Notes: generated from the letters alone by a model not told the origin. Shown: positions 4,986 to 32,931, counted from the first letter of the stretch. The stretch: DNA of 33,227 nt from Candidatus Zixiibacteriota bacterium (GCA_003641425.1 QNAH01000001.1:1-33227), one strand, 5' to 3'. A program made the numbers and translations.

Positions 4986-7976
4986 ATGAATATTAAATTA
5001 TTTATATCGGCTTTTTTATTATGTGCATTGATTCTTTCTAGTTTTGCTTTGTCCGGCGAGATTGCACCGGAACTTACCGCCCGGATATCGAACTTGTCCG
5101 GTGATGATATGATCCCGGTTATCATCACGCTAAAAAAGCCGGCCTATAAATCAAATCTTAAATCCGATATGGCCAAACGTTACAAAACTGCCGCAGAGCG
5201 TCATCTGGCCGGGGTGGAACAATTAAAAAGCGAGGCCGCGACACTTCAAGGCGATCTTATATCATCATTAAATCAATTACAGCAATCCGGGCTTGCCGAA
5301 AATGTAAAAAGCCGCTGGATAATTAACGGCGTCACCGCCGACCTGGCCCGATCCGAGATTGCAGACATCGCTTCACGTCCCGATGTTGCGATGGTATATG
5401 AACTCCCCGGATTACATCTGGTCGAATCATCATCTGATTATGCCGCTGCATCTCCGCAACTGCTGTCATCGTCCCCGGAACCGAATATTAAGCTGGTGGG
5501 AGCCGATTCGGCCTGGGCGCTGGGATATAACGGCGCCGGACGGATTGTCTGTTCATTCGATACCGGGGTCGAGGGGATTCACCCGGCGTTATTCGACAAA
5601 TGGAAGGGACATGACGGCGACTCAGCCGCGGCCTGGTTTGATCCTATCGGCATGGAATCGTTTCCGCATGTCTTTGGTTTTCTGGGCGATGACGGTACCC
5701 ACGGAACTCATACAATGGGTATTATGGTGGGGGCGTGTGATACCATGCGATTTGATAAAGACAGTATCGGGATCGCTCCGGGCGCCAAATGGATTTCCGC
5801 GGCGGTCGTCAGCCTGGCAGGTGTTTCCCTTATCGATGCTTTCGAATGGGCGGCCGATCCCGACGGCGATCCGAATACCATCAGCGATGTTCCCGATGTT
5901 ATTAACCACAGTTGGTATAATTTGGAGCTCGATTGCAGTGATTATTTCCACGAGATGATAGAGAACACCGAGGCGCTTGGTATTGTAAATGTATTCGCCG
6001 GCGGAAATAGCGGTCCCAATTCCCGCACTATGACGAATCCGGCAAATCTGGCCTTCGATTCTCTCGACTGCTTTGCGGTTGGATCGATTTATTACGGCGA
6101 CAGTATCGTCTCCGGATACTCTTCGCGAGGTCCATCTGACTGTAACCCGCTTTCGATTGATATGATCAAGCCGAACCTGGTCGCCCCCGGCGACAGTATC
6201 TGGTCATCGACCGGGTCAAATTATGTGTCCCGCGCAAGCGGGACCTCGATGGCGGCGCCGCATGTATCCGGAGCGGTGGCGATTCTGCGTCAGTATGCTC
6301 CCGATGCCACTGTCGATGAAATCAAGCAGGCGCTTATTGCTGGCGCGGTGCACCCGTCAATGGGTGAACCGTACCCGAACAACAATTACGGCTGGGGCGT
6401 GCTTTACATTCCGTCGGCACTCGAAGCGCTCGACTCAATCATGCATTCCCCCGTCGCAGATCTGCGCATCTACTCTTTCGATCAAAATCCGGTACTCCCC
6501 GGCGATACCGTTTCGGGCACGGTGGTGATAAAAAATGTTGGATCGGATATCGATGGTGTCATTGCAAACATCGCGGCGACGGCCGATGGGATGGATCTGC
6601 TGGTCAATTCCCTCCAATTCGGGACAATTTCATCCGGCGATACCGCCCACAGCGACATACCGTTCCGTGCCCTGGTGCATGATACCGTGACCACCGGGAC
6701 ATTGCTTTCTGTGGATATCGAGATGACCGGGGCCGGGGGTTATCTCAATCCGGCTCACCTGTATATCAGGGTCGGAACCGCACCCGAAGTTTCATATTAC
6801 ACGCACAGCAACGGTGCGCTGGATTTCACCATTTCCAATTTCGGAGAGTACGGTTTCGCCTTTTATTCTTTTTACCCGCTCAATTACAGCGGATTTCGTT
6901 ATCTCGACATGACCCGGAATGACCTGTTCGAGGGCGCTTTTCTGGTCGGTACCGATTCGGCCCATATATCGGATGGTGTCCGCAACATAGCCGGGGAACC
7001 GGACAATGATTTTGCGGTCGCTCCCGGCGGGGATCTGGTTGTCTGTACGCCCGGAACCAAAGCGGATCAGCAGACCTATTCGGTCTTTGATGACAGTAAG
7101 GCCGAAAATCCGATTGGTCTGGAAATTACCCAGAAAACTTACACATGGAACGATCCCCCCGCAGACAACATTGTCATTATGGAATATATCATAAAAAATG
7201 TCTCCGACAGTCTTATCGATAGTATCTATGCCGGTCTATTAATGGACTGGGATTTGCATTCGGGCCGAATTGATAGCGGCAACTATAATCCGGACAGTGA
7301 TATGGGATATATGTGGCATGGGCTGACCGGGTCCCCTGATGTCGTGCAGGCCAAGTACCGCGGGATATGTGTTCTCAGCGAGGAAGGCATGACGACACAT
7401 AAGATGGTATCGATTAATGAGCAGTCTAATACCAAGTACACCCTTTCGGAAGGAACGAAATACCAGGCGATTGCCTCGAATATTCTTGGCGGAAATCCCT
7501 TCAACATGGAGGCCGATTTCTGGGTGACTGTCGGTACCGGACCGTTTAACCTGGCGCCGGGGACAATGGACACAGCGGTGTTCGCATTGGTGGCCGCCGA
7601 TACGACACTTGACAATCTCATTGCCGCGGCGGCCGAGGCCCGAAATATGTATGATATCGTGACCAATATCGAGATTATCGATAATGAAATTCTTCCGGAA
7701 AGATTCGCACTTGATCAGAATTATCCCAACCCATTTAATCCATCGACGACGATTTCGTTTTCGCTGACAAAACGATCTCATGTTGAATTATCGATTTACA
7801 ATCTTCTCGGGCAAAAAGTGATCAATCTGATCGACAAGGAACTTTCGGCCGGAAATTACAGGACATCATGGGATGGGCGCGATAAATTCGGGGATGAAAC
7901 GGCCGGCGGGGTATATTTTTACCGGCTGAAGACGGGTGAATCGAGTCAGACACGCAAGATGGTTCTTCTGAAATAG
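4986..7976 (+). CDS. Subtilisin-like S8 serine peptidase, N-terminal propeptide, T9SS C-terminal sorting domain
   Basis: Signal peptide is present. Catalytic motifs are Asp (VCSFDTGV), His (HGTHTMGIMVG) and Ser (SGTSMAAPHVSGAVAIL). C-terminus is 'LDQNYPNPFNPSTTISFSL...GVYFYRLKTGESSQTRKMVLLK'. A GTG at 4983 is an alternative start. Confidence 0.9.
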   Translation: MNIKLFISAFLLCALILSSFALSGEIAPELTARISNLSGDDMIPVIITLKKPAYKSNLKSDMAKRYKTAAERHLAGVEQLKSEAATLQGDLISSLNQLQQSGLAENVKSRWIINGVTADLARSEIADIASRPDVAMVYELPGLHLVESSSDYAAASPQLLSSSPEPNIKLVGADSAWALGYNGAGRIVCSFDTGVEGIHPALFDKWKGHDGDSAAAWFDPIGMESFPHVFGFLGDDGTHGTHTMGIMVGACDTMRFDKDSIGIAPGAKWISAAVVSLAGVSLIDAFEWAADPDGDPNTISDVPDVINHSWYNLELDCSDYFHEMIENTEALGIVNVFAGGNSGPNSRTMTNPANLAFDSLDCFAVGSIYYGDSIVSGYSSRGPSDCNPLSIDMIKPNLVAPGDSIWSSTGSNYVSRASGTSMAAPHVSGAVAILRQYAPDATVDEIKQALIAGAVHPSMGEPYPNNNYGWGVLYIPSALEALDSIMHSPVADLRIYSFDQNPVLPGDTVSGTVVIKNVGSDIDGVIANIAATADGMDLLVNSLQFGTISSGDTAHSDIPFRALVHDTVTTGTLLSVDIEMTGAGGYLNPAHLYIRVGTAPEVSYYTHSNGALDFTISNFGEYGFAFYSFYPLNYSGFRYLDMTRNDLFEGAFLVGTDSAHISDGVRNIAGEPDNDFAVAPGGDLVVCTPGTKADQQTYSVFDDSKAENPIGLEITQKTYTWNDPPADNIVIMEYIIKNVSDSLIDSIYAGLLMDWDLHSGRIDSGNYNPDSDMGYMWHGLTGSPDVVQAKYRGICVLSEEGMTTHKMVSINEQSNTKYTLSEGTKYQAIASNILGGNPFNMEADFWVTVGTGPFNLAPGTMDTAVFALVAADTTLDNLIAAAAEARNMYDIVTNIEIIDNEILPERFALDQNYPNPFNPSTTISFSLTKRSHVELSIYNLLGQKVINLIDKELSAGNYRTSWDGRDKFGDETAGGVYFYRLKTGESSQTRKMVLLK

Positions 7977-8356: not shown

Positions 8357-10258
8357 ATGCTGAAACAAAAAATGAATGATATAAAAGTCCTGATCAGCGA
8401 AAGGGGTTATATCGACCGGTATCGCTACCTGGTTATGGCTCTGCTTCTGAATGTGCCGGTCATCTATGTCATTCTCATGCTGGATGTGAAACAGGCCGAT
8501 TTTACACTTCTGAGCTGGTTCTATATCTCTACGGTCATCCTGGGTTATTATGTTTTGCCATTGCTGATTGTCTCAAGTGCTCTATTTATGCTTTTATTCC
8601 CATTCAGAAGACTCCTTTATTTTGTCACCGGCGCCGTGACGGTGATTTTTGTATTTTATCTTTTGATAGATCACTTCGTCTATGTCATCGCTAAGATACA
8701 TATCGATCTTTTCTGGCTTGAGTGGATAATAAACGATCTCGATGCGTTCGGCCTGCAGCCCTCCACATTCCGCAATGTCCTGCTGGTTCTGCTGGGTATT
8801 ATCGCATTGGAATTCGGTATTTTCCAAATTGCAAAGAAAATAAAAAAACCGAAATATATGATCCTGATATTCTCGGTATTATTAATCCTTGCCTTTGCCG
8901 CCAGTCAGATTATCCATGTCGTCGCCTATCAGCAGAACTACAGCCGGATAACCAGCCTTACGCCCTATTTCCCGATTTATGTTCCTGTAACATCCCATAA
9001 GAACGCCGATAAGTTCGGGAACCTGATTCCCATTTCCGAGGATGACGCTCAGGCTGTATCGGGTGATTTGAACAGCTCACTATATTATCCGCGGGCTGAA
9101 TTGAAATATTCGACACAGTCCGACACGGCACTTCCCAATCTCGTTATTATTTTTCTGGAAAGCTGGCGGATCGAAATGATGAATGACACAGTAACCCCGA
9201 ATATATTCGCCTTATCTCAAAAATCCTCGGTATTTACCAATCATTTCTGTTCCGGGAATTCGACAATTGCAGGGACATTCGGTCTGTTCTACGGAATTCA
9301 TCCGACATATTGGACAGCCGTGAAGGCCAATAGTGCCATAATCGATAATCCGGTATTGATCGATCATCTCAAAGAAAAACAATACGCCTTTGGCATCTAT
9401 GCCAGATCCAATTTTGTTCGACACAAGATCAAGGATGCTATTTTCCGCGGGATCGAGGTTCATGAATCATTTGCCGGGAAGACTAAAATCGAGCAGGACA
9501 GGGATATGACCGACCGGGTTATCTCTTTCATCCGCGAGCAGACAAACAGATCGAATCCATTCATGGCTTTTACATTTTACAAATCCAATCACTTTCCCTA
9601 CGAGTATCCCCCGGAGGACTCCATCTTTATGCCGGCTGAAGATATCAACCTTATGTTTGCTGATGATGACACTGACCCTGTGTACTATCGGAATGACTAC
9701 ATGAATTCGACTCACTATGTCGATGCACTCATAGGCGATATTATAAGGCAACTGGATTCGCTCGGACAGATGGAAAAGACTATTGTCGTTATCACCACCG
9801 ACCATTCCGATGAACTGAATGACAATCGGGCCAACTACTGGGGCCACGGCAGTAATTTCACAAAATATCAGTCAATGGTACCATTTGTTCTTTATATACC
9901 CGGCCGGAAACCCGCGCAGATCGATTATACTACCTCGCATATTGATTTGGTGCCGACTCTTATGCAAGAAGTTTTCGGTTGCGAGAACGATATTGATGAC
10001 TACAGCAACGGGAGAAATCTTTTCGAGAAGCCGAACGGTATTCGTCCGATCGTAGTCGGAAGCTATGTCAATCATGCCTTTGTGATAGAAGACAATGTTT
10101 ACGAGATATACCCGATGTACACGAAAAAGTATAAGCTTGATAATATCGAAGAAAAAGCATCTCCCCCTCCCCCGGATATTTTAAAAAAAATAATGGATGA
10201 AATAAATCATTTTTATAAAAATAGCGATTCCGATCAAGACGGTATAACCGGGAAGTGA
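8357..10258 (+). CDS. yejM: YejM/PbgA(LapC)-like inner-membrane protein: multi-TM DUF3413-type N-terminus plus periplasmic sulfatase-fold domain
   Basis: There are about 5 N-terminal TM helices. The segment 'LYYPRAELKY...NLVIIFLESWR...FTNHFCSGNSTIAGTFGLFYGIHPTYW' is colinear with E. coli YejM 'VQYPLSELRY...VLLITVDGLN...FTRHMSSGNTTDNGIFGLFYGISPSYM'. 'VVITTDHSDE' and 'WGHGSN' also fit. Confidence 0.8.
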   Translation: MLKQKMNDIKVLISERGYIDRYRYLVMALLLNVPVIYVILMLDVKQADFTLLSWFYISTVILGYYVLPLLIVSSALFMLLFPFRRLLYFVTGAVTVIFVFYLLIDHFVYVIAKIHIDLFWLEWIINDLDAFGLQPSTFRNVLLVLLGIIALEFGIFQIAKKIKKPKYMILIFSVLLILAFAASQIIHVVAYQQNYSRITSLTPYFPIYVPVTSHKNADKFGNLIPISEDDAQAVSGDLNSSLYYPRAELKYSTQSDTALPNLVIIFLESWRIEMMNDTVTPNIFALSQKSSVFTNHFCSGNSTIAGTFGLFYGIHPTYWTAVKANSAIIDNPVLIDHLKEKQYAFGIYARSNFVRHKIKDAIFRGIEVHESFAGKTKIEQDRDMTDRVISFIREQTNRSNPFMAFTFYKSNHFPYEYPPEDSIFMPAEDINLMFADDDTDPVYYRNDYMNSTHYVDALIGDIIRQLDSLGQMEKTIVVITTDHSDELNDNRANYWGHGSNFTKYQSMVPFVLYIPGRKPAQIDYTTSHIDLVPTLMQEVFGCENDIDDYSNGRNLFEKPNGIRPIVVGSYVNHAFVIEDNVYEIYPMYTKKYKLDNIEEKASPPPPDILKKIMDEINHFYKNSDSDQDGITGK

Positions 10259-22713: not shown

Positions 22714-24045
22714 CTACGAAACCAGGGGAAGCGTTATTGTAAATACCGAGCCGCGGCCGATACCCTCGGACTCGACCTTTATCCGGCCGCCACGATTTTC
22801 GACGGTCTGCCGGGCAAGATACAGGCCCAGGCCGGTCCCCTTGACTGTCCGCGTGGACTCGTTGTCGATCCGGTAAAAACGATCGAATATATTTCCCTGC
22901 TCCTCTTTAGGAATTCCGACCCCATTGTCGGCGATGGAAATTCTTGCCGACCCCGAGTCTTTTGAAAGACTCACAGTGACAACGCGGTCATTCGGATCGG
23001 AATATTTAAGTGCGTTTTCAACAATCATCCGAATCGCTCTTTCCAGCGCCTGATAATCGGTTCTGACATTGACATTGGGCTCGATCCGCGTCTCGATTCT
23101 TCCTCCCAGTCCTCTGATCAGGGGTTCGAAATTACTCAAGTATTCATTCAGATCAACGGCCAGGTCGGTCGGTGTCAGGTTAAGCTTGTAATCGTTTCTG
23201 GAAGAATGTCCCGCATCGAGAACATTATCCACCATGCCGTCAAGTCGGTAACAGTCATCAAGCATCTTGGCGTAGAGCTCCTGTTTTTTATTTTCATCTA
23301 TTTTTCCGGCCTGAAGCGTCTGAATGTACAATCGTAGCGATGTCAGCGGCGTTCGAAACTCATGAGTGACGGCGTGGATAAAATTCTGCTGGCGGAATTT
23401 AAGCCCCTCCGACCGCTGCAAGGTGCGGTAAATCAAAAAGGCCCCGAATAGAATGATGATGACAAAAAAACTGCCTTCCGATGCAAACATCTTTATCCGG
23501 CCGGCAATTTCCCGCTCCATTTCTTCCCTAACTGCCGGAGATATTGAAAACATCTCGGGGCTAATCCAGTTCATCCCCTCGCCACCGTGATGGCCGGTGG
23601 GATCAAAGACTACGGTTCCTTCCAGGCTCGCAAGCGATTTCTCAGGATAATGAGGGTCGAAGTAAACGGTCCCGCCGGCGATATCCGCATAAAAGGTCGA
23701 GTCGATGCGGCCCAGGACGACCGGTTTACCATCGCCGTCTTCATTCGTCGCAAAGCCTATTATTGCGCTGTCGCTTAGAAGACCATCGAAAAAATCCCCG
23801 GTGTTTTCTGTAACATTCATTGCATATGACAGCATGCCAAGTTTCTGTTGAAAGCAGCGGTTTACGGCCAGCACTGTGATCTCGATCCGTTGATTTAGAA
23901 GCTCGGCCTTGTGGCGGCTGAGTTGTTTGCTTAAATCTATCTGATATATTATCCACCAGGACAATTGCGCCAGGCAGAAGACCACCAGGATCAAAAAGAT
24001 GACCAATGCAAACCGGGTCGGCTTAAGCCCTTTTTTAAACTTCAT
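22714..24045 (-). CDS. Sensor histidine kinase (two TM helices flanking a periplasmic sensor region of roughly 150 aa)
   Basis: HisKA H-box 'HEFRTPLTSL'. HATPase N/G boxes (VENALKYS, DNGVGI, GTGLGLYL). Its stop abuts the start of the response-regulator gene. Confidence 0.92.
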   Translation of the reverse strand: MKFKKGLKPTRFALVIFLILVVFCLAQLSWWIIYQIDLSKQLSRHKAELLNQRIEITVLAVNRCFQQKLGMLSYAMNVTENTGDFFDGLLSDSAIIGFATNEDGDGKPVVLGRIDSTFYADIAGGTVYFDPHYPEKSLASLEGTVVFDPTGHHGGEGMNWISPEMFSISPAVREEMEREIAGRIKMFASEGSFFVIIILFGAFLIYRTLQRSEGLKFRQQNFIHAVTHEFRTPLTSLRLYIQTLQAGKIDENKKQELYAKMLDDCYRLDGMVDNVLDAGHSSRNDYKLNLTPTDLAVDLNEYLSNFEPLIRGLGGRIETRIEPNVNVRTDYQALERAIRMIVENALKYSDPNDRVVTVSLSKDSGSARISIADNGVGIPKEEQGNIFDRFYRIDNESTRTVKGTGLGLYLARQTVENRGGRIKVESEGIGRGSVFTITLPLVS

Positions 24046-24614
24046 AAAAAAATACGTTGCAGTTTATGTTTTACTCGATTCCGCCCTTTACGGTATCTTA
24101 CGTCGCAAATCTGTAAAATAATGTAATTATATCTGCTTGCGATTGTCAATTCGGGGAATATTCGAAAAAACCGGATTAAAAGGAAGTAAAAACTTCTGTA
24201 CTGTCCGGTGAAGATTTTATTTCGATCAAAACACTATCCGATAATTTGCCACCTCCCTCCACTTCGGGAGCCTCCTGCGCACCCCGAAAATGAAAAAATG
24301 GCCCGTACAAATAAAGTCCGGAATATTGACTTAAGTAAAATCATAGCGTGAGTGACCCTATAAAAAAGATAATAAAAGTTGTGTTTTAGTCATGGGCGGC
24401 ATTTTAATAGTTCTGATATTCCAAAATATTTCCGCGGCCATACATTTTGTCCTACCTTTAAGATAATCATGAGTATAATTTAGTAGTGGACAAAATAGGG
24501 ATTACTTTGTATGATAATGGAAAATCAAACTTAGTTTGAAGCGAAGTGTAATGTCCTCAACGATTTAACCAGCCTGTGCAAAGGGCTTAAACCTGTGAGG
24601 AGGTTTTTGATACC

Positions 24615-25265
24615 ATGAAACGTTTGTTAATTGTTCTGCTGGCCATGCTGATTTGTATTCCCAGCGTCTATGCCCGCAAAAAATCGAAAAAATCAGGTGT
24701 TATTAAAGACAATATTTACACCGACGCCGAGTATAATTTTACCATCAAAATTCTGGAAAACTGGGAAGCGAAACTTCAAAAACCCAAAAAGATGATTCGC
24801 CTTGCCCTGACTCAGCGGGATCACGAGATTCCGCCTGAACTGATGCAATTCCCGAGTATGGCTATGGTGCCGACTCTTAATATCCATATCGGTAAAGTGG
24901 ATATGCCGCCGGCGGTATATGTCGATTCACTGGTGAGCTTAACTTATTCTTCAGACGTCAAAAAGGAAGTGATGAAGGACCTCATGGCTCTGGAGGAAAA
25001 TGTCACTTTCGACGGGTTAAAAACTACACAAAAAGACCGGATCAAGATCGACGAAAAAGAGGCCTGCCAATGGCAGGGTTCCGTCAACTATACCAAAAAA
25101 TTGGGGATGGGCGATACCATTCCGAGGGTGTACAGTGTTGGAATAGTTGCGTTAAAAAAGGGTGATCTGATGATGACCTGTTTGATCGAGACTGAAAGCA
25201 TGTTTTTCACAGATATTTTCAAAGAGGTCCTCGAGATGGTCCATACTATCGAATGGCCGGATTAA
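24615..25265 (+). CDS. Secreted hypothetical protein
   Basis: Strong SD GAGGAGG. Signal peptide MKRLLIVLLAMLICIPSVYA. I recognise no motif. Confidence 0.7.
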   Translation: MKRLLIVLLAMLICIPSVYARKKSKKSGVIKDNIYTDAEYNFTIKILENWEAKLQKPKKMIRLALTQRDHEIPPELMQFPSMAMVPTLNIHIGKVDMPPAVYVDSLVSLTYSSDVKKEVMKDLMALEENVTFDGLKTTQKDRIKIDEKEACQWQGSVNYTKKLGMGDTIPRVYSVGIVALKKGDLMMTCLIETESMFFTDIFKEVLEMVHTIEWPD

Positions 25266-25290
25266 TAATCAGAAAATATATTCAATTTTG

Positions 25291-25323
25291 AAAAGGCAGG
25301 GTTATAAATCCTGCCTTTTTTTA
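25291..25323 (+). terminator. Rho-independent terminator
   Basis: AAAAGGCAGG-gttataaat-CCTGCCTTTTTTT. Confidence 0.85.
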
Positions 25324-25434
25324 TATTCAAAGAATATTGATCTTCTATCCGTATCTTAAGTGATGCCCGATCGTAAACAATTTTAGTCCACTATTTCTTC
25401 CTTTCCGGTCCGCAGTATACAAGGGGGTTGCTTC

Positions 25435-26706
25435 ATGAGTATTTCAACCAGAACATTGTTTCTGTTGGTCTTTTTTGCTTTGTCAAATGCGGCCGTCGCC
25501 GGCATCGATGAAGACAGCATCTTCTATAAGATTGTCCGCCCCGCCTATCCCATGACCTGGCTGGAGGCGCGTGATTCGGCCGCGGCGCTGGACGGATACC
25601 TGGCTGTGATAAGCGATCAAGCCGAACAGAAGACAATTACCGCTTTGCTGAACGGTACCGAAACAGCATGGATTGGCGGCAGCGATGTTGTTGTCGAGGG
25701 ACGCTGGCGATGGTCGAACGGCGAGACATGGATTTTCGACAATTGGATACCGGGACAGCCCGATACCGCGGCCGGAATGGATTACGCCGTCATGGATCCG
25801 GGGGGCATTTATAGCTGGCGGGCCGCTTCCGGGACCGCCGATGCTTTCGTGGTCGAGTGGGATTGCTGCCGTTCCGGATTTACCGGGAATGTCAACTGCG
25901 ATTCGCAGGGCGCCATAAATATCCTCGATATCTCCTATCTGATCAATTACCTGTATAATTCGGGACCATCGCCCTGTTGCCGTGATCTGGCAAATGTCGA
26001 TGGTGATTCCGATAATAATGTAAATCTGCTGGATGTACTAAGGATTATCAATTTTCTTTATATCAGCCATGAACCTCCATCCGAATGCGGACCGGGTGTC
26101 ATTGAGCCGTTCGATACCACAATCATTGTCGATCGTCTGGGAAAAGAATGGGATGTATCATATGGGGTACATTTCTACGGCATGGATCCGGCCAATTTCA
26201 ATTTTGGTCTGGGCGCCGGCTTTTTCCCGCCGTTTGTAAATCCCGAGTTCCTCTCGCCGGGGGATTCCGGCTACCCCGTGCCTGATGATCCCATGGGAAT
26301 ACTGGCGACGACTATCAATGGAGAAAGCCGTGCCTATAAGCTTGACGCCCTGATCGGGCACGAAGTGGTCAATGATCGATTCGACAACATCTATGTCGCT
26401 CCCGCTTACTGACCGCTTAAAAACCTGGCTGTCGTGTACAGCCGAGAGATCAATGGCGAAATATTGACCCTTGCGGCCAGCGGATGGACCTATAATTTCT
26501 CCTTTGTCCTTTATGATCATGAAACCGAGACAATGTGGCTTCCGGTAAATGTCGGCGACGGCGGCCCCAACAGTTGCGGTTGTGTAATGTGGGGCTTTGC
26601 CGGACCGTTTGCCGGACGGTTTCTTCATGCCTACCCCTCGAGCAATACCAACTGGAATATCTGGTGGCCGGAACACCCCGACACCAAGATTATGAAAACG
26701 GAATAA
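25435..26706 (+). CDS. Secreted C-type-lectin / dockerin-like / DUF3179 fusion protein containing one in-frame TGA (26410-26412), either candidate selenocysteine or a nonsense mutation
   Basis: SD AAGGGGG plus a signal peptide. C-type lectin-like region (WLEARDSAAALDGYLAVISD...WIGGSD..VEGRWRWSNGETW). Dockerin-like duplicated EF-hand (GNVNCDSQGAINILDISYLINYLY / ANVDGDSDNNVNLLDVLRIINFLY). The ORF-track pieces 25435..26412 and 26434..26706 are in the same frame. Joined, they form one DUF3179-like domain: ...INGESRAYKLDALIGHEVVNDRFDNIYVAPAY[TGA]PLKNLAVVYSREINGEILTLAASGW...VLYDHETETMW...WWPEHPDTKIM. Confidence 0.6.
26426..26444 (+). promoter_or_regulatory. SECIS-like hairpin downstream of the DUF3179 TGA
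   Basis: uGGCUGU-CGUGU-ACAGCCg is a 6-bp stem plus a closing U.G pair. The apical-loop GU lies 24-25 nt from the U of UGA, nearly the same spacing as in the SelW-like gene. Confidence 0.4.
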
Positions 26707-26830
26707 GCCAATTTTATATCCGGGGCCGGACAATACAACATATTCGGTCTCGATATTATTCTTGAATTCTGCAAAAATATTCGATCTATTTATCGTAATT
26801 ATGTTTATTGAAATCCAAAAAGAGGTTTTT

Positions 26831-27064
26831 ATGAAAATTAGTATAAAATACTGTGTTGAATGAAATTACCTGCCCCGTGCCGTCGGTCTGGCGGATGCTG
26901 TCAAAAAAAGATTTGGATTGGAATCCCGATTAATAAAAGGGGGCGGGGGCGTTTTTGAGGTCGCCTTCGATAACAAAGTCTTTTACAGCAAAAAGGACAA
27001 TCGTGGCCGTTTCCCGACCCATGAAGAGATATTCGAATTAATCGAAAAATATCAAAACACGTAA
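26831..27064 (+). CDS. SelW-like / Rdx-family selenoprotein (CxxU), 77 aa with in-frame TGA at 26861-26863
   Basis: SD AGAGG lies 5 nt upstream of the ATG. The translation is MKISIKYCVE[U]NYLPRAVGLADAVKKRFGLESRLIKGGGGVFEVAFDNKVFYSKKDNRGRFPTHEEIFELIEKYQNT. It follows the Rdx pattern (I.YC..C/U....RA...A..L...FG....LI.G.GG.FEV......++SK...GRFP...E+). It is absent from the ORF track because of the TGA. Confidence 0.85.
26876..26897 (+). promoter_or_regulatory. SECIS-like hairpin of the SelW-like gene
   Basis: The core is CCGUC-GGUCU-GGCGG (26880-26894). A lower extension with a bulged G is possible. The GGUCU apical loop resembles the E. coli fdhF SECIS loop. The first loop G is 24 nt from the U of UGA. 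Confidence 0.6.
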
Positions 27065-27271
27065 TTCGCTTAAGCATCTGTAGAATATTGGAAATTATTA
27101 ATAATACAAATGATGACAATATGTGTGCCTGCAAGCGCAGGATTAACAAAAATATGCCGGAAGAAATCAGAAATCCTCGAAATTCCACCAGCGAAAAGAC
27201 TGAGATTTTACCGCTTTTAAGCACATCTTCGTGCCGATGTGCCTGATTGCCGGCAATAACAATGGGTAGCA

Positions 27272-27886
27272 ATGTCAGAAGAAAATGGGGCATCAAAATC
27301 CGAAAAACTATCCAATCCCCAAACCTGGGTGGATGTACACGGTGATTTTCTTTTCGGATATGCTATCCTGCGATTGAAGGATACCTCTACCGCGGAAGAT
27401 GCTGTGCAGGAGACTTTTTTAGCCGCCCTGAATGCCAGGGATTCTTTCAGGGGCCAGTCCGGCGAACGGACCTGGCTCGTTTCTATCCTTAAGAACAAAA
27501 TCATCGACCATTTTCGTCGCCTCAGCCGGGAGGTCGATTTCCACAATAATGATATTGACGTAATCGATGATGATTTTATTGCATCCGGCCCGAGAGCGGG
27601 TACCTGGAAAGCCGGTCAAAGACCATCCGAGTGGGTAGTCGACGCTGCCGACCTTGCCGAACAAAAAGAATTCTGGGAATATCTGCGCAAATGCATCGAT
27701 CGGATGCCGCCGCATATCGGGATGGTCTTTATCCTGCGCGACATCGAGAATATGAAAAATGAAGATATCTGTAACGTTTTGACGGTTCAGCCGACTAATC
27801 TGAGAGTAATATTGCACCGTGCGCGAAAGCGTTTACGCCGGTGCCTTGAAAAAATATGGCTGAATACCGAAAGGAGCGAACGGTGA
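27272..27886 (+). CDS. ECF-type RNA polymerase sigma-70 factor
   Basis: Region 2 ('DAVQETFLAAL...ERTWLVSILKNKIIDHFRR') and region 4 ('ICNVLTVQPTNLRVILHRARKRLRRCL'). About 200 aa. Confidence 0.9.
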   Translation: MSEENGASKSEKLSNPQTWVDVHGDFLFGYAILRLKDTSTAEDAVQETFLAALNARDSFRGQSGERTWLVSILKNKIIDHFRRLSREVDFHNNDIDVIDDDFIASGPRAGTWKAGQRPSEWVVDAADLAEQKEFWEYLRKCIDRMPPHIGMVFILRDIENMKNEDICNVLTVQPTNLRVILHRARKRLRRCLEKIWLNTERSER

Positions 27887-28209
27887 AAAAAAGGCCGGGT
27901 ATGTCGGCAAAGGCGATGCTGATGATGTCGAAAGCGATGGGCGGTTTTATGCCTACCTGTCGCGAAGTGTCGCAGCTGACATCACGAGAGTTTGATGAAA
28001 AACTTTTGTTCCGTCAGCGGCTCGGTATCAGACTTCACCTGATTTTCTGCAAATGGTGCCGCCTTTACAGGAATCAGCTTCAATTTATAGATAATTTCCT
28101 CCGCCGATATTCGGCAGATGTCGAAAAAGCCCCGATCGGCATTGAAATCAGTCTTTCCGATGAAACCCGCGACCGTTTCAAGCGTGCCATCAAAGATAAT
28201 AGCAAATAA
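27883..28209 (+). CDS. Soluble zinc-binding (ZAS, HxxxCxxC) anti-sigma factor
   Basis: The GTG at 27883 overlaps the sigma stop (GTGA), with AAGGAG 7 nt upstream. 'C-REVSQL...' followed by 'HLIFCKWC' gives the C...H-x3-C-x2-C ZAS motif. There is no TM segment. Confidence 0.75.
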   Translation: MKKRPGMSAKAMLMMSKAMGGFMPTCREVSQLTSREFDEKLLFRQRLGIRLHLIFCKWCRLYRNQLQFIDNFLRRYSADVEKAPIGIEISLSDETRDRFKRAIKDNSK

Positions 28210-28398
28210 CCCGCAATTTCTAAAACCCCTCGAAAATAATTATCCTTTTCAATAACAAAGACTTATATGATCTACAATTGAATTTAACCAGAGTATTTTC
28301 AATAGCTGTCCACTTTTTATGTAACGAAAAGCGATACCGGGCGACTAAGAATCAAAACAATAAAAGGGATTAACAAACCCAGGCAAGGAGAAGAAACT

Positions 28399-28521
28399 AT
28401 GTCGATGATGTGCAACAAAGAAAGCTGTAAAGCAAAGAGAGGTATGTGCGGGCATGAAAAGATGATGATGTGGGGAATTTTGATAGTCTCCGCAATCGGT
28501 CTTTCTTACTGGCTTATTTAG
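28399..28521 (+). CDS. 40-aa Cys/Met-rich single-TM micro-protein
   Basis: SD AGGAG lies 8 nt upstream of the ATG. The translation is MSMMCNKESCKAKRGMCGHEKMMMWGILIVSAIGLSYWLI. The N-terminal half has 3 Cys, 1 His and 7 Met. The C-terminal half is a TM helix. It is below the ORF-track size cutoff. Confidence 0.55.
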   Translation: MSMMCNKESCKAKRGMCGHEKMMMWGILIVSAIGLSYWLI

Positions 28522-28571
28522 AGATGGGACAAAAAGCAGGAAATATTAACAAATACAAAGAAGGAGTAATA

Positions 28572-29378
28572 ATGATGAAAGCAATGAAAAACATGATTTT
28601 AGGTCTGTTGCTGACTGGGGCGATGATGACGACCGCGGCGGCCCAAAAAGATCCGGGTAATCCCTGTGGTCATAAGAACGGCATGATGTTTCATATCGAT
28701 GACCCGATGAGCCGCAATTCGGTGACTTTCAAGAGTACCGCCCCTCTGGAGGATATTGTGGGGACCAGCAATGAGATAACCGGCTACATTCAATTCAATC
28801 CGAGCCATCCCGAAAACGGCGGTCATGGGGAGTTTACCGTTCCGGTGGCCAGTCTCAATACCGGAATTCCTCTGAGAGATGAGCATCTGCGAAGCGCCGA
28901 TTGGCTGAATGCCGGCGCGTATCCCGACATCAAACTGACCGTCAAGAATATCAAGAATATAAAGGAAGTCAAATCGTCGGGTGATGCCCAGACATACGAC
29001 ATAACTTTCATGGGTAATCTGTCTTTTAACGGAAAGACCCGATATACCAAGGTCAAAGGGCGGATGACCTACCTTCAGGAAAGTGAAGCCACGAAACAAC
29101 GTATGCCGGGTGATCTGGTGGCGGTTCGCGCGGAGTTAAATATCCCGCTGGCGGAGTTCGATGTAATCGGACCGGAGGGAATGGGTATTATCGGCTCCAA
29201 GGTCGGCAAGACAATCGATGTCGAGATCAGCCTGATGGCAAGCACCCGAGCATCGTCACTTGCCGCCGAGGCCGGGAATCCGTGCGGGGACAAGGCGATG
29301 AATCCCTGTAATCCCTGCGGTGGGAAATCAATGGACGCGCACAATCCGTGCGGGATGAAGAAGAGCGACTCAAGGTAA
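28572..29378 (+). CDS. YceI-like periplasmic protein with NPCG-repeat Cys-rich termini
   Basis: SD AAGGAG precedes the ATG at 28572, followed by signal peptide MMKAMKNMILGLLLTGAMMTTAAA. YceI-like core ('SVTFKSTAPLEDIVGTSNEITGYIQF...VPVASLNTGIPLRDEHLRSADWLNAGAYPDIKL'). GNPCGH follows the signal peptide. The tail is GNPCGDKAMNPCNPCGGKSMDAHNPCGMKK. Confidence 0.75.
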   Translation: MMKAMKNMILGLLLTGAMMTTAAAQKDPGNPCGHKNGMMFHIDDPMSRNSVTFKSTAPLEDIVGTSNEITGYIQFNPSHPENGGHGEFTVPVASLNTGIPLRDEHLRSADWLNAGAYPDIKLTVKNIKNIKEVKSSGDAQTYDITFMGNLSFNGKTRYTKVKGRMTYLQESEATKQRMPGDLVAVRAELNIPLAEFDVIGPEGMGIIGSKVGKTIDVEISLMASTRASSLAAEAGNPCGDKAMNPCNPCGGKSMDAHNPCGMKKSDSR

Positions 29379-29397
29379 AAAGGCAGGTCAGGTAATT

Positions 29398-30456
29398 ATG
29401 AAGATAATGAACAAACATGCAATCGCCCTGGCAATGACTCTGATTGTCGCGGTAGCAAGCATTTTACCGATCGGGCCGGTAAAGGAAGCGGGCGCCCGGT
29501 CCAATAACGGACCGGGCGTTCGCCCCAATAATGATAACGGTGAAATACCGGAATCGGATTTGATATATGTAACCGGCAGCAGTTTTGCAATGGGGTATGA
29601 TCAGGCTTATGAGGACGGGCGCCCGGTGCACGAGGTAACCCTTAATCCTTTTTATATAGATCGATATGAAGTAACCAATGCCCGGTTCAGGGAATTTGTC
29701 GATGCTCCCGGTTATGTAACGACGGCGGAGCACGGCGGTTACTGCTGGGCGTATCTGGAGGGCGCCGAAGATTTCCAGAGGATTTTGGGTGCCTACTGGC
29801 GTCAGCCGGAGGGACCGGGTTCCTCGATCGAAAACCGGCTGAATCATCCGGTGGTCTGTGTCAGCTGGCATGACGCCGCCGCATATGCGGCCTGGGCTGG
29901 TAAACGCCTGCCGACCGAAGCGGAGTGGGAATATGCCGCCCGCGCGGGCGCCGACGATCATTACAGAGCCGACACCGGAGAGCATCATGGCGGGCAGGAT
30001 CATGCAACGGTCGCCAATGATCACTCGCCGTCCTCGAAAAGCCATCGTAACAACATGGAATTCCATGCCATGGGCGCTCAACAGTCCGGTGAGAATCAGG
30101 TCCGGGCCAATATCTGGCAGGGCACATGGCCGGATGTCAATCATCTCGATGACGGCTTTTTCTACACTGCGCCGGTGGGAGGTTTTTCCCCCAATGATTG
30201 GGGCGTGCATGATATGATCGGCAATGTCTGGGAATGGACCGCCGACTGGTATGCGCCTGATTATTATCTGAACTCACCGGCAAGCAATCCATCGGGTCCG
30301 GACAGCGGCGACAACCGGGTGGCCCGGGGCGGGAGCTGGTTCTGCAGTCCCAATTACTGCGGCGCTTACTCGACTCATTACCGCGGCGCCAGTCCGCCGG
30401 ATCATGCTTTCAATAATGTCGGATTCCGGTGTGCCGCTGATGCCGATTACGAGTAA
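29398..30456 (+). CDS. Formylglycine-generating-enzyme (FGE/SUMF1) family protein, exported, with His-rich insertion
   Basis: Signal/anchor at the N-terminus. 'HPVVCVSWHDAAAYAAWAGKRLPTEAEWEYAARAG', 'GNVWEWTADWY', and 'RGGSWFCSPNYCGAYSTHYRG...VGFRCAAD'. Both FGE active-site cysteines (C-x4-C) are present. A His-rich insert of about 50 aa lies at nt 29950-30100. Confidence 0.85.
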   Translation: MKIMNKHAIALAMTLIVAVASILPIGPVKEAGARSNNGPGVRPNNDNGEIPESDLIYVTGSSFAMGYDQAYEDGRPVHEVTLNPFYIDRYEVTNARFREFVDAPGYVTTAEHGGYCWAYLEGAEDFQRILGAYWRQPEGPGSSIENRLNHPVVCVSWHDAAAYAAWAGKRLPTEAEWEYAARAGADDHYRADTGEHHGGQDHATVANDHSPSSKSHRNNMEFHAMGAQQSGENQVRANIWQGTWPDVNHLDDGFFYTAPVGGFSPNDWGVHDMIGNVWEWTADWYAPDYYLNSPASNPSGPDSGDNRVARGGSWFCSPNYCGAYSTHYRGASPPDHAFNNVGFRCAADADYE

Positions 30457-30479
30457 GACGTAAGAGAAGGAGGAGAATC

Positions 30480-30581
30480 ATGACTGCGAAAACAAAAAAA
30501 ATAATTGTCACGACGCTGTTCCTGACTGCGGTTGTACTGGCTGTCTGGCAGATTACGGGCGGCGGGATTTTACGAGAGTAA
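30480..30581 (+). CDS. 33-aa single-TM micro-protein
   Basis: Very strong SD GAAGGAGG lies 6 nt upstream of the ATG. The translation is MTAKTKKIIVTTLFLTAVVLAVWQITGGGILRE. Confidence 0.5.
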   Translation: MTAKTKKIIVTTLFLTAVVLAVWQITGGGILRE

Positions 30582-31126
30582 TATTATTACCAAAACGGTA
30601 ACCCGCGACTCTTTCCGACTGGGTCTTCTTCCGACCCCGTCGAGTATGATCGACAAACATATGCTCTCGGTAATATCATTGCTCGGGCCGTTATGGTTTG
30701 TGACACTTGTTTTATCCTGGCGCTCACGGCGCAGATTGAACCGGGCCGGTTCATGAATGGTACGGTCGATCTCGGATATCGGTTGAAAACCTCTATCGTC
30801 TTTCTCATTCGGCGGCATCGACTGCCCCCTGATCGACTACCGGATATTTACGGACGAATTCAATCAGCATGATCAACCCGATAATGAGAAAGACGGCGTC
30901 GTTGAAAATGAAAATGAGCGGCAGGTCGGCGTTCATGTAATGCCCGGCCAACACGGCGGCAAGGATCAAAACCGAAATGGTATTTTTTTGATATTTGAAG
31001 GCTGTAAGACGGCCGGGAAAAAGATAAAATACATATTAAGTATCACAGGCGCGATATATAAATTCCTTGATTTTTTCAGCCCATAGATAATAGGTTGAAA
31101 AAAATATATTATCGTTAGGAATAATA

Positions 31127-31357
31127 ATGGCTCGCGCACCATTTCAGGTCCTGGTATTTCCTTATTATATAAATAATGACGGGAATATCGTTTATGCCGT
31201 TTTTAAACGTCGGCCTGATAACGGAGATTTCTGGCAACCGATTGCGGGAGGTGGAGAGGATGACGAGACGCCTTTGCAGGCCGCCTGCCGGGAGGATTTC
31301 GACCCAAATAAACATATAATAAAAAGCCGACGAACCGGACCCATACCCAACCGGTAA
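31127..31357 (+). pseudogene. Truncated NUDIX hydrolase remnant
   Basis: 'FQVLVFPY...YAVFKRRPDNGDFWQPIAGGGEDDETPLQAACRE' is a NUDIX N-terminus with the start of the Nudix box (G-x5-E-x7-RE). The expected 'U-x-EE-x-G-U' and the rest of the fold are replaced by unrelated sequence (DFDPNKHIIKSRRTGPIPNR*). Confidence 0.55.
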
Positions 31358-31467
31358 CGTAAAATAAGATAAAGTTAACCATGACGCAACCATTGACAGA
31401 TAAGAGTGTAATATAGCATAATCCGCCCATATCGATAATTGTCATTTGTTTTTAAAAGGATTGAAAT

Positions 31468-32931
31468 CTATTCGGTGCGGAGGGCTTCGACCGGATCGAC
31501 CCGGGCGGCGCGCGAGGCGGGATAAAATCCGGCGGCGAGGCTAACCAGCAGGCCGAATAAAAGCGCGGTCAGGATCAGCCAGGGGGGCAGGGCGAAGAGG
31601 TCCATCTCGGGGATGTCCTGTTTTTCCATGATTACTTTTATTACCAGTGATGCCGCGCGGGTAATGACCCACCCGAAGATAATTCCGAAGACCGCGCCGA
31701 TGGACCCGATCAGCCCGGATTCGGCCAGGAAGAGAAGTCGTATGTCGCGCTCATCGGCCCCCAGCGATTTCAATATGCCGATTTCGCGTCGGCGTTCGAT
31801 GATTGACATCACCATCGTATTGACAATGCCGAGCGAGGCGGTGATGAGGGCGATCAATCCGATGACACCGAGGCCCATGTCGAAATAGATAAAGAATTTT
31901 TGCATCTCGGCGAATTGTTCGGCATAGCTGAAGGTCCTGAAGCCCATCGCCTTGATCGAATCGCGTGCCGAGGTGTATGTTATATTCGGGTCAAGATTGA
32001 CGGTTACTTTGGGATAGAAACGTCCTCCCGCTTCGTCTCCGGTACCGAGCAGATTTCCGCTTTGCAAAGCGGCGAAAAGATCGGCCGGATTATCGGACAT
32101 CCCGCCGTAACTGAATCGTTCGGCGGTGGCAGTCGGTATGATAACCGGTTTGATGCGCATCATACCTCCCTGCCCGCCTTCCATGACACCGCGGATAATC
32201 AGCGTATCCCTCAGCACCGCTTTGGCATTGAGGAAACCGTCAAGAAAACGCATCATGGCATTGCCCAGTTCCCGGCGGACGATACGTTTGGTATAGGCGG
32301 CATGTATCAACGAATCAAAATGTATTTCTTTGATGCGCTCTTTGAGAGTGCTGTCCATTTTCGGGATGATATGTACGATACCGCTGTCGATGCTGGCGAC
32401 ACTGACTGAGATGATAAGAGTGTCGCCAATCAGCGAATCGGCCTTGCCGATATTAAGCAGGTGGAGGAATTGCTCGGTCACGATGGCTTCTTTGGCGCAG
32501 TCGCTTTCGAAAGCCGAACCGGCGGCAAAATGTGAATATGCTTTTGTGTTCATCGCCTCGACCGAAAGCGCCTGGGCCGAGATGGACAACTCTGTATCGG
32601 AAATATTTGCGGTCAGGTCGAAGTCATCGAAAGGATAGGCCAGTTTGACGCCGGGCAGATCGGAAATGGCGGCGACAGCACGGGCATCGAGAATCGCGGG
32701 TGGCATGGTGTCGGTCGGTTGAGCATCTCCGGGCGGATAGACCTGCATAGTATTGAAAAGATCGAGTTTCTCGTATTGCTCGGAGACATTCCTCTGCATC
32801 CCGGCCCCGAAGGATAACATCGCCACGAAAGCGGCGATGGCGATTATAACGCCTGAGACAGTCAAGAAGGCACGCAGTTTCATGCGCCATAGGTTGCCGG
32901 TTGAGATAGACACAAAATCCCTGAAAGTCAT
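31468..32931 (-). CDS. ABC transporter permease, FtsX/MacB-LolCE family
   Basis: N-terminal TM helix, a large periplasmic domain, and a C-terminal FtsX-type 3-TM bundle ('GIVNTMVMSIIERRREIGILKSLGA...'). It ends 'RAARVDPVEALRTE'. ATGA overlap with the upstream ATPase gene. Confidence 0.88.
   Translation of the reverse strand: MTFRDFVSISTGNLWRMKLRAFLTVSGVIIAIAAFVAMLSFGAGMQRNVSEQYEKLDLFNTMQVYPPGDAQPTDTMPPAILDARAVAAISDLPGVKLAYPFDDFDLTANISDTELSISAQALSVEAMNTKAYSHFAAGSAFESDCAKEAIVTEQFLHLLNIGKADSLIGDTLIISVSVASIDSGIVHIIPKMDSTLKERIKEIHFDSLIHAAYTKRIVRRELGNAMMRFLDGFLNAKAVLRDTLIIRGVMEGGQGGMMRIKPVIIPTATAERFSYGGMSDNPADLFAALQSGNLLGTGDEAGGRFYPKVTVNLDPNITYTSARDSIKAMGFRTFSYAEQFAEMQKFFIYFDMGLGVIGLIALITASLGIVNTMVMSIIERRREIGILKSLGADERDIRLLFLAESGLIGSIGAVFGIIFGWVITRAASLVIKVIMEKQDIPEMDLFALPPWLILTALLFGLLVSLAAGFYPASRAARVDPVEALRTE

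Follow-up and report, generated by a model that had tools for sequence, protein, structure and literature searches.

Positions 25435–30581 of a 33,227-nt stretch of DNA from Candidatus Zixiibacteriota bacterium (GCA_003641425.1, QNAH01000001.1:1-33227; the whole stretch is called the window below) carry the gene of an extracytoplasmic function (ECF) sigma factor together with a set of redox- and envelope-related genes, and one of the closest described systems is the SigR–RsrA pair of Streptomyces coelicolor. RsrA is a small soluble anti-sigma factor of the zinc-associated anti-sigma (ZAS) type with the ligands C11, H37, C41 and C44; the anti-sigma factor encoded here is likewise small and soluble and has the same spacing, C-x25-H-x3-C-x2-C. 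Both regulons include thiol-redox proteins (here the CMD/AhpD-like proteins of relatives) and both appear to contain a built-in feedback loop. The locus differs from SigR–RsrA in that its sigma factor belongs to TIGR02943 and not to the SigR group, that the predicted promoter is another one, that the output consists mainly of exported or envelope proteins, and that feedback would run through a promoter inside the sigma gene which makes the anti-sigma factor alone. A comparable arrangement exists in E. coli, where a sigmaE-dependent rseA promoter lies inside rpoE and drives the anti-sigma gene, whereas the element described here coincides with the codons of sigma region 4.2, is maintained by codon choice across phyla and co-varies with the target promoter. 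The regulatory kind, an ECF sigma factor with a ZAS anti-sigma factor, is already known.

Another close counterpart is found in the sigmaF–NrsF bufferin operons (Caulobacter CC3254-57), bufferins being RiPPs that chelate copper; here, too, the genes under ECF control encode a Cys-rich polypeptide for export, an oxidase that modifies Cys and small membrane proteins. The promoters are nearly the same: the mapped motif of Caulobacter sigmaF, which responds to Cr and Cd, is GTAACC-N16-CGAA (PMC3511200), and a bufferin operon in another genome (locus L127) has TGTAACC-N15-CGTATTA and begins with the same 40-residue peptide as our locus. Protection against copper by bufferin operon products is mentioned in PMC11626156. 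The differences are considerable, as the two sigma factors are only 18% identical, the anti-sigma factor is a soluble ZAS protein here and the NrsF protein with six transmembrane (TM) helices there, the oxidase is a homolog of the formylglycine-generating enzyme (FGE) here and an MNIO there, and the Cys carrier is a folded, tailed YceI protein here and BufA there. A Pfam search of the window found no BufA precursor, MNIO (DUF692), DUF2063 or DoxX. The module resembles a bufferin cluster in how it works, without belonging to that class.

Two of the effectors have described counterparts of their own. The FGE homolog shares fold, family and the C-x4-C Cu(I) site with FGE/SUMF1, which acts together with Cys-type sulfatases, and differs from it in having no CxPxR sulfatase in the host genomes, a variable and mostly His-rich loop, an N-terminal export or anchor segment and a gene for NPC-tailed YceI (NPC, Asn-Pro-Cys) always next to it. 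The pair of periplasmic YceI and the cytochrome b561 YceJ in E. coli is similar in that an exported YceI-fold protein is encoded next to a small membrane protein, but the partner here, with two TM helices and a beta-hairpin, belongs to no Pfam family and shows no heme-ligand pattern, and the YceI protein carries Cys-Pro tails. No paper joining YceI, FGE and an ECF sigma factor was found in the literature, in agreement with the first-pass annotation, a model's reading of the sequence, which knew of no described system with this composition. We likewise found no description of the effector set, of an FGE clade without sulfatases, of the two unnamed membrane proteins or of a promoter encoded in region 4.2 codons.

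Judged from sequence comparison, the core of the locus is a module of six plus-strand genes, encoding the ECF sigma factor, the soluble ZAS anti-sigma factor, a 40-residue membrane peptide (micro40), an exported YceI protein with Asn-Pro-Cys (NPC) tails, the FGE homolog and a two-helix membrane protein (TM115), and not a set of eight equal partners. Families were assigned by Pfam and NCBIfam searches of the window proteins. The comparison covered the window's own genome (G000), which is a 2.9-Mb metagenome-assembled genome (MAG) of 465 contigs and 86.5% completeness, 60 genomes of relatives, and 63 YceI-anchored loci from many phyla (a scan of a YceI alignment with one genome per species), whose neighbours were scored by tblastn with all window proteins. 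Some 11 other MAGs, ranging from genomes of the Zixibacteria type to a Phycisphaerae MAG, have the core genes in the same order. Close YceI orthologs are present in seven of the relatives, and in G010, G035 and G044 the genes for sigma, anti-sigma, (where present) micro40, YceI, FGE and the next protein follow one another as in the window; the module is absent altogether from G001 and G002, which belong to the same genus as the window genome.

Across the 63 loci, YceI is accompanied by TM115 in 44, by FGE in 17, by sigma plus anti-sigma in 11, by micro40 in 9 and by an AhpD-like gene with an in-frame TGA in 6, while DUF3179 lies within about 6 kb in 2 and SelW adjoins the module in none (0/63; the rest of those genomes was not searched for SelW). 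No other widely common neighbour of YceI was seen in these loci. On the basis of these counts, we consider the YceI–TM115 pair to be the evolutionary core and the six-gene module a specialised version of it. The first-pass annotation had read eight consecutive genes as one redox or metal envelope cluster, and all eight plus-strand open reading frames (ORFs) are indeed present between 25435 and 30581. The idea that all eight form one conserved unit was rejected because SelW adjoins the module in no related locus examined; the cluster survives as the six-gene core and, at the level of the regulon, the selenocysteine (Sec) protein DUF3179(Sec), and it loses SelW and the eighth gene as it was then read. 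Its question whether ECF–ZAS–YceI(NPC)–FGE clusters recur can be answered positively, with SelW adjacent in none of the 63 loci and DUF3179 nearby in just the two counted above.

The sigma gene (27272..27886, +) encodes sigma-70 regions 2 and 4 only (Pfam Sigma70_r2 and Sigma70_r4_2), as in ECF factors, and the protein scores 177.1 bits on TIGR02943 (cut-off 162.2). Its orthologs at 11 loci are 42–57% identical; on the same model the ortholog of L058 lies above the cut-off and that of L045 just below. The anti-sigma gene (27883..28209, +, with a start at 27856 or 27883) follows directly, and its product scores 57.7 bits on NF052368 (cut-off 50) and 17 bits on Pfam zf-HC2, which is under that model's cut-off of 22.2. 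An H-x3-C-x2-C motif with an upstream Cys, characteristic of ZAS proteins, is present as C35...H61LIFC65KWC68 (numbering from ATG 27856) and kept in 11 orthologs, and the protein has no hydrophobic segment, as expected of the soluble type. The sigma and ZAS assignments of the first reading are thus upheld by TIGR02943 and NF052368, and the GTGA overlap that it proposed between the two genes is plausible as well: GTG 27883 overlaps the sigma stop codon, has AAAGGAG 6 nt upstream and is a plausible start as far as the sequence goes, with ATG 27901 as an alternative.

Common control of the module is suggested by a promoter motif. The predicted operon promoter TGTAACGAAAAGCGATACCGGGCGACTAA (28320..28348, +) lies upstream of micro40 and has the form TGTAAC-N16-CGAC[TC]AA, which resembles the Caulobacter sigmaF motif. 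Its sequence and spacing are invariant in all ten comparable spacers between anti-sigma and micro40 or YceI, although these spacers are otherwise diverged, and the motif occurs in none of the 50 loci that lack the sigma gene (0/50). Perfect matches in the 2.9-Mb window genome number two, both inside the cluster (28320-28348 and 27770-27798); in eleven other cluster-holding genomes no more than one is found outside the cluster, and a reversed control pattern gives 0–1 match per genome. Since the motif accompanies every orthologous locus and is close to absent from the rest of the genomes, it is very likely that the module is one sigma-dependent regulon, in line with the earlier suggestion that the downstream genes are under ECF control.

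The second in-cluster site, TGTAACGTTTTGACGGTTCAGCCGACTAA (27770..27798, +), is located inside the sigma gene, some 85 nt before the anti-sigma gene begins, where it coincides with the codons for C-N-V-L-T-V-Q-P-T-N of region 4.2. The motif-compatible codons TGT, AAC, CCG and AC[TC] are used in 11 of 11 sigma orthologs, while nearby synonymous positions vary freely; where Ala replaces Pro (L054), the codon is GCG, so that CGAC is preserved. According to local codon usage, the chance of motif-compatible codons is 0.5–13% per locus, the product over the 11 loci is ~1e-14, and the joint chance stays negligible if the loci are taken as ~8 independent lineages. The strongest single argument comes from the Phycisphaerae locus L062, in which the residues C-K are coded TGT AAG and the operon promoter before FGE likewise reads TGTAAG-N16-CGACTAA; this co-variation argues that one sigma factor reads both promoters. 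We regard the internal promoter as likely to be functional, and it would supply extra anti-sigma factor without extra sigma factor, a negative feedback by which the response is shut off. A third site was found in L044, L045, L048 and L050, where it precedes a run of genes for CMD, AhpD(Sec), sigma and anti-sigma, and these genomes may have positive feedback on sigma in addition.

The FGE homolog (29398..30456, +; PF03781, 244.8 bits) contains GGSWFCSPNYC, a His-rich loop and an N-terminal segment for export or anchoring. The closest solved structures are those of true FGEs, from S. coelicolor (E 3e-68), T. curvata and human (SUMF1), far ahead of EgtB, PvdO and PorK. FGEs are cited in PMC12452194 as Cu(I) enzymes with a two-Cys site, and the Cys pair C-x4-C that the first reading had pointed out is kept here, with CSPNYC aligned to CHDSYC of the S. 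coelicolor enzyme. The His-rich insert is also confirmed, with 55 aa in the window protein versus 22 aa in canonical FGEs; within the clade, GGSWFCSPNYC is fixed and the loop that replaces the canonical 22 residues has 23–71 residues and is mostly His-rich. A pseudo-substrate in this loop was considered and rejected, because the conserved SPSxKSH is unlike CxPxR and is missing from short-loop members.

Sulfatases of the kind matured by FGE were not found in the host genomes. G000 has one sulfatase-fold gene (window 8357-10258), of the multi-TM YejM/LtaS type and without CxPxR or SxPxR, and no canonical sulfatase signature in any frame; G035, at 100% completeness, lacks sulfatase-fold genes entirely, the one present in G010 is a membrane type without CxPxR, and G044 has one arylsulfatase-like protein (L108, G044:C129) with C-S-V-T-R instead of C-x-P-x-R. 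Since no CxPxR sulfatase is present in these genomes, we file the protein as FGE-family by sequence and not as a sulfatase maturase, and the FGE therefore probably has a new substrate. Among the relatives, the FGE ortholog is confined to cluster-holding genomes. In a reverse scan of metagenome contigs, all FGE homologs of at least 54% identity with enough flank lie beside YceI or TM115, the sole exception being a short contig with little flank (L131), and 70-odd homologs of at most 49% identity are never found there.

The adjacent YceI gene (28572..29378, +; PF04264, 81.5 bits) encodes a hydrophobic N-terminal signal ending AAA-Q, as read from the sequence, followed by GNPCG and, at the C-terminus, a tail of four NPC units including C-N-P-C. 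The five units had been recognised at first reading; they are borne out, and the tails are kept in orthologs. A clustered NPC motif occurs in G000 in the YceI tail only. Four to 14 units are present in 14 of 14 YceI proteins next to FGE, and none in 26 of the 33 without FGE; the YceI proteins that have NPC units and no FGE are mostly on truncated contigs. With no sulfatase in the genomes, and with the enzyme found only beside NPC-tailed YceI, the leading candidate role for this FGE is to act on the tails or to exchange Cu(I) with them; the tails head the list of possible substrates or Cu(I) partners because C-N-P-C offers Cys-x-Pro, the first three positions of CxPxR. Action of the FGE on the tails is nonetheless put forward only tentatively, as a possibility that falls short of even chances. 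About as doubtful is the combined proposition that this FGE clade left sulfatase maturation and took the (Cys-Asn-Pro)n tail of YceI as its substrate (Cys to aldehyde, or a Cu(I) relay), and that the sigma factor running the module has its promoter spelled out in the codons for the helix with which it recognises promoters, a self-referential feedback conserved and co-varying across phyla.

The context of the module points to thiol chemistry. The micro40 peptide (28399..28521, +) has 40 residues with 3 Cys, 1 His and 7 Met, exactly as first described, in the form of a Met-rich head with the Cys3-His set, followed by a TM helix at the C-terminus; it has no family in Pfam or NCBIfam, is kept in nine other loci and in a Myxococcales locus, and has a 74%-identical homolog as the first gene of the sigmaF/NrsF bufferin operon in L127, with near-identical promoters. 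In KSB1-type loci, AhpC/TSA, a thioredoxin-like protein (Thioredoxin_3), DoxX and another ECF sigma factor precede YceI(NPC)–FGE–TM115; in L062 the flanking genes are those for MerT-HMA, a MerA-like reductase, DsrE and CMD; and the regulon of relatives includes CMD/AhpD-like proteins. Because of the soluble anti-sigma factor with its RsrA-type ligand spacing, the CMD/AhpD-like members, these neighbour genes and the presence of micro40 in a bufferin operon, we slightly favour a trigger of the thiol-reactive kind, either soft metals or oxidants. The redox or metal envelope theme of the first-pass annotation is therefore supported by the neighbours in other phyla and by the bufferin link, with SelW taken out of it. 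As a separate observation, a premature stop in L046 (7829-7894) trims micro40 to 21 codons in a cluster that is otherwise intact.

Under the explanation we prefer, oxidants, or metals with an affinity for thiols such as Cu(I) and Hg(II), would impose a thiol-reactive stress that disrupts the Zn-Cys site of the anti-sigma factor and frees the sigma factor, which would then transcribe the envelope operon micro40–YceI(NPC tails)–FGE homolog–TM115. The output would be an exported YceI lipocalin with flexible Cys-x-Pro repeat tails and its membrane partner TM115; a copper-type FGE oxidase made at the same time would act on the tails or exchange Cu(I) with them, and micro40 would contribute a membrane-anchored Cys3His peptide common to copper-responsive bufferin operons. 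DUF3179(Sec), AhpD-like (Sec) and CMD proteins would belong to the same regulon in relatives, and DUF3179(Sec) probably here too. Taken as a whole, this ECF/ZAS regulon for thiol-stress defence of the envelope, with FGE working on the tails, is a fairly probable account.

Several points weigh against it. The promoters and the inducing signal are predictions, and the loci come partly from related MAGs, so that the promoter counts stand for ~8 lineages and are not independent. The motif is missing upstream of DUF3179, SelW (26831) and the sigma gene itself (27272) in the window; among the three starts at which the first-pass annotation had proposed to look for it, only 28399 has it. ZAS proteins are not all redox-sensitive. 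NPC-tailed YceI proteins occur in G033 and G036 with FGE nowhere in the genome, and the tails must therefore function without the enzyme there; the notion that tails require FGE was rejected on these two genomes. In L061, sigma, ZAS and micro40 drive a Cys-free YceI–TM115 pair, so Cys tails are not needed by the regulon. The FGE consensus CxPxR includes an Arg that is absent from the tail motif C-N-P-C-G-G-K, and TM115 is broken in the window.

Among other explanations, two survive about equally well, and both are improbable. The first is copper supply instead of defence: the Cys tails, the His-rich loop and micro40 would collect Cu(I) and hand it to the FGE cuproenzyme, whose real substrate would be another protein or a small molecule. 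The two-Cys Cu(I) site is kept in the window FGE, His-rich loops are common in its clade and micro40 is also found in copper-linked bufferin operons, all of which fit this idea; but the FGE is never without NPC-tailed YceI, yet tails occur without FGE, G000 offers no other motif-bearing candidate substrate, and the stress-type sigma/ZAS control suits defence better.

YceI proteins are known lipid and polyisoprenoid binders, and the second explanation starts from this, with the YceI–TM115 core carrying an isoprenoid or quinone for membrane protection, the Cys tails serving as sacrificial antioxidants and FGE being a lineage-specific addition with a side role. It agrees with the wide spread of YceI–TM115, the most widespread pair (44/63), which occurs in many phyla and mostly without Cys, FGE or this sigma factor. 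A sacrificial Met-rich periplasmic peptide under sigmaF/NrsF control is described for Azospira in PMC4436054. The strict tie of a distinct FGE clade to the tails would be left unexplained, however, and FGE oxidises thiols irreversibly, with no recycling.

It is far less probable that an ordinary sulfatase-maturing FGE sits in the operon by chance while its sulfatases lie on unassembled parts of the genome. The high similarity to bona fide FGEs, the 86.5% completeness of G000 and the CSVTR arylsulfatase-like gene of G044 would allow it; the complete genome G035 without any sulfatase-fold gene, the YejM/LtaS-type proteins without CxPxR as the only such proteins of G000 and G010, and the constant adjacency of the clade to YceI or TM115 contradict it. 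A chance juxtaposition of unrelated redox genes with no common regulation, which the missing promoters of SelW and the window DUF3179 and the absence of the module from G001 and G002 might suggest, is hardly credible; for the six core genes it is refuted by the cross-phylum conservation of gene order, promoter and internal site and by their co-variation, and it remains for SelW only.

If the preferred explanation of an ECF/ZAS thiol-stress regulon is true, it would give lineages that are represented by metagenomes alone a defined and testable regulon of this kind, made up of sigma factor, anti-sigma factor, promoter and targets, and three families without a name, TM115, micro40 and DUF3179(Sec), would be placed within a stress response. 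For FGE enzymology and aldehyde-tag biotechnology it would matter that an FGE clade has a role outside sulfatase maturation, and a sigma-dependent promoter in region 4.2 codons that drives the anti-sigma factor only could be reused in synthetic ECF switches.

The two genes upstream of sigma were first read as candidate selenoprotein genes, and this is supported for both by their Pfam families and by the tRNA-Sec and two selD genes of the window genome, which make reading TGA as Sec legitimate. One selD copy (C217:4819-5640) has an in-frame TGA itself (Sec-type SelD), and the copy on C392 has no in-frame stop. The first gene (25435..26706, +) encodes an exported protein with C-type-lectin, dockerin and DUF3179 domains (Pfam DUF3179, 92 bits), with TGA at 26410-26412 in Y-U-P-L-K; this in-frame TGA is kept in 13 of 19 homolog matches in relatives. 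DUF3179 is already among the listed UxxC/T selenoprotein families (PMC9312934). The second (26831..27064, +) encodes SelW/Rdx with C-V-E-U (TGA 26861-26863; PF10262, 62 bits; 87.5 bits on the NCBIfam SelT/W/H model against a cut-off of 88). When the sequence 3' of each TGA was folded for a selenocysteine insertion (SECIS) hairpin and compared with shuffles, the hairpin was moderate for DUF3179 (z -1.84) and no better than shuffled sequence for SelW (z 0.3). On sequence grounds the selenoprotein assignments of both are sound, but SelW is no more than a neighbour of the module.

DUF3179(Sec), on the other hand, is linked to the sigma factor in other genomes. The sole perfect promoter outside the cluster in G035 lies ~50 nt upstream of a dockerin–DUF3179 gene with TGA at Y-U-P-L-E, and in G065 the single additional match sits 24 nt ahead of a DUF3179 gene with W-U-P-L-C; promoters in two independent genomes place DUF3179(Sec) in the predicted regulon, and the window gene probably belongs to it too by analogy. 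The latter lies two genes upstream of the sigma gene with no terminator predicted between DUF3179, SelW and sigma, and it may be co-transcribed with both. A scan for terminators and sigma-70 promoters gave the same counts as shuffled sequence, its sole clear feature being a terminator-like hairpin of 14 pairs with a T run at 25290-25320, after an upstream gene for a secreted 216-aa protein, which is a possible left border of a DUF3179–SelW–sigma transcription unit. An Rfam scan of 24000-31500 yielded just two sub-threshold matches, which we ascribe to chance. The mature N-terminus of the DUF3179(Sec) protein in G035:C78 (L216), ...TACNPNGGKH..., resembles one YceI tail unit (NPCNPCGGK).

The eighth gene had been taken for a 33-aa TM peptide, and this did not hold, as the ORF at 30480-30581 (33 codons, no family) consists of the first 27 codons of TM115 plus out-of-frame residues and is thus a 5' remnant. 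In relatives, the gene after FGE encodes 113–123 residues with two TM helices and the blocks WQATGGDYYTK, DPLAAAGFYD and GLLPTPxGxxDKH. TM115 in the window (30480..30756, +; ~115 aa, a TM/beta-hairpin/TM partner of YceI) matches this family over its first 27 codons, and the remainder, AAGFYES...GLLPTPSSMIDKH...TM, continues in another frame up to 30756, since 74 nt are missing at 30558-30562 between two GGCGG repeats. The gene is intact, MTAKTKK...WQITGGDYYTKFEVVEQVETELDPDDPLVAAGFYES..., in L126 (JGI 3300022552), which comes from another sample and is 99% identical to the window; the gap may be a strain variant or an assembly error. The TM115 family comprises more than 100 sequence clusters, none of which has a name or a Pfam domain, and neither Pfam nor NCBIfam has a family for the window protein. 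A structural model shows a TM helix, a beta-hairpin and a TM helix (mean pLDDT 75), and a fold search with it against solved structures gave no match with E <0.001. L126 has a defect of its own, as about 126 nt of the FGE 5' region corresponding to window 29501-29615 are missing and FGE is called as two pieces, with its stop codon mutated and four codons added; the two assemblies each break a different operon gene.

Further details were seen around the module in relatives. In six loci an AhpD/CMD-like gene with an in-frame TGA precedes the sigma gene (L037:10920-11456(-), L038:10951-11484(-), and also L044, L046, L048 and L050), coding for N-x-C-H-Y-U-I-E-H-H (CxxU) and lying 13–50 nt upstream of sigma and on its strand; it is itself preceded by another CMD gene, of the Cys type. 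A conserved sigma-70-like promoter, TTGACA-N17-CATATT, lies before the AhpD(Sec) gene in L044 (~6090-6140) and likewise in L045, L046 and L048, over the near-palindrome GTTAAATATTTGCATATTAAC, a possible operator for a second regulator. An extra perfect copy of the module's promoter in G066 (C76:6374-6402, L217) stands ~65 nt upstream of a gene for a secreted right-handed beta-helix/FG-GAP-like protein, which may be a further regulon member, and a near-match, GGTAAC-N17-CGACTAA, is found in the window genome on contig C44 (11641, +), 36 nt from the contig end, so that the gene it would precede is missing from the assembly. In G010 a Fur-family regulator gene and a KatG-like gene (L038, 501-3255), recognised by eye from their N-terminal sequences, follow the module at a distance of about 4 kb.

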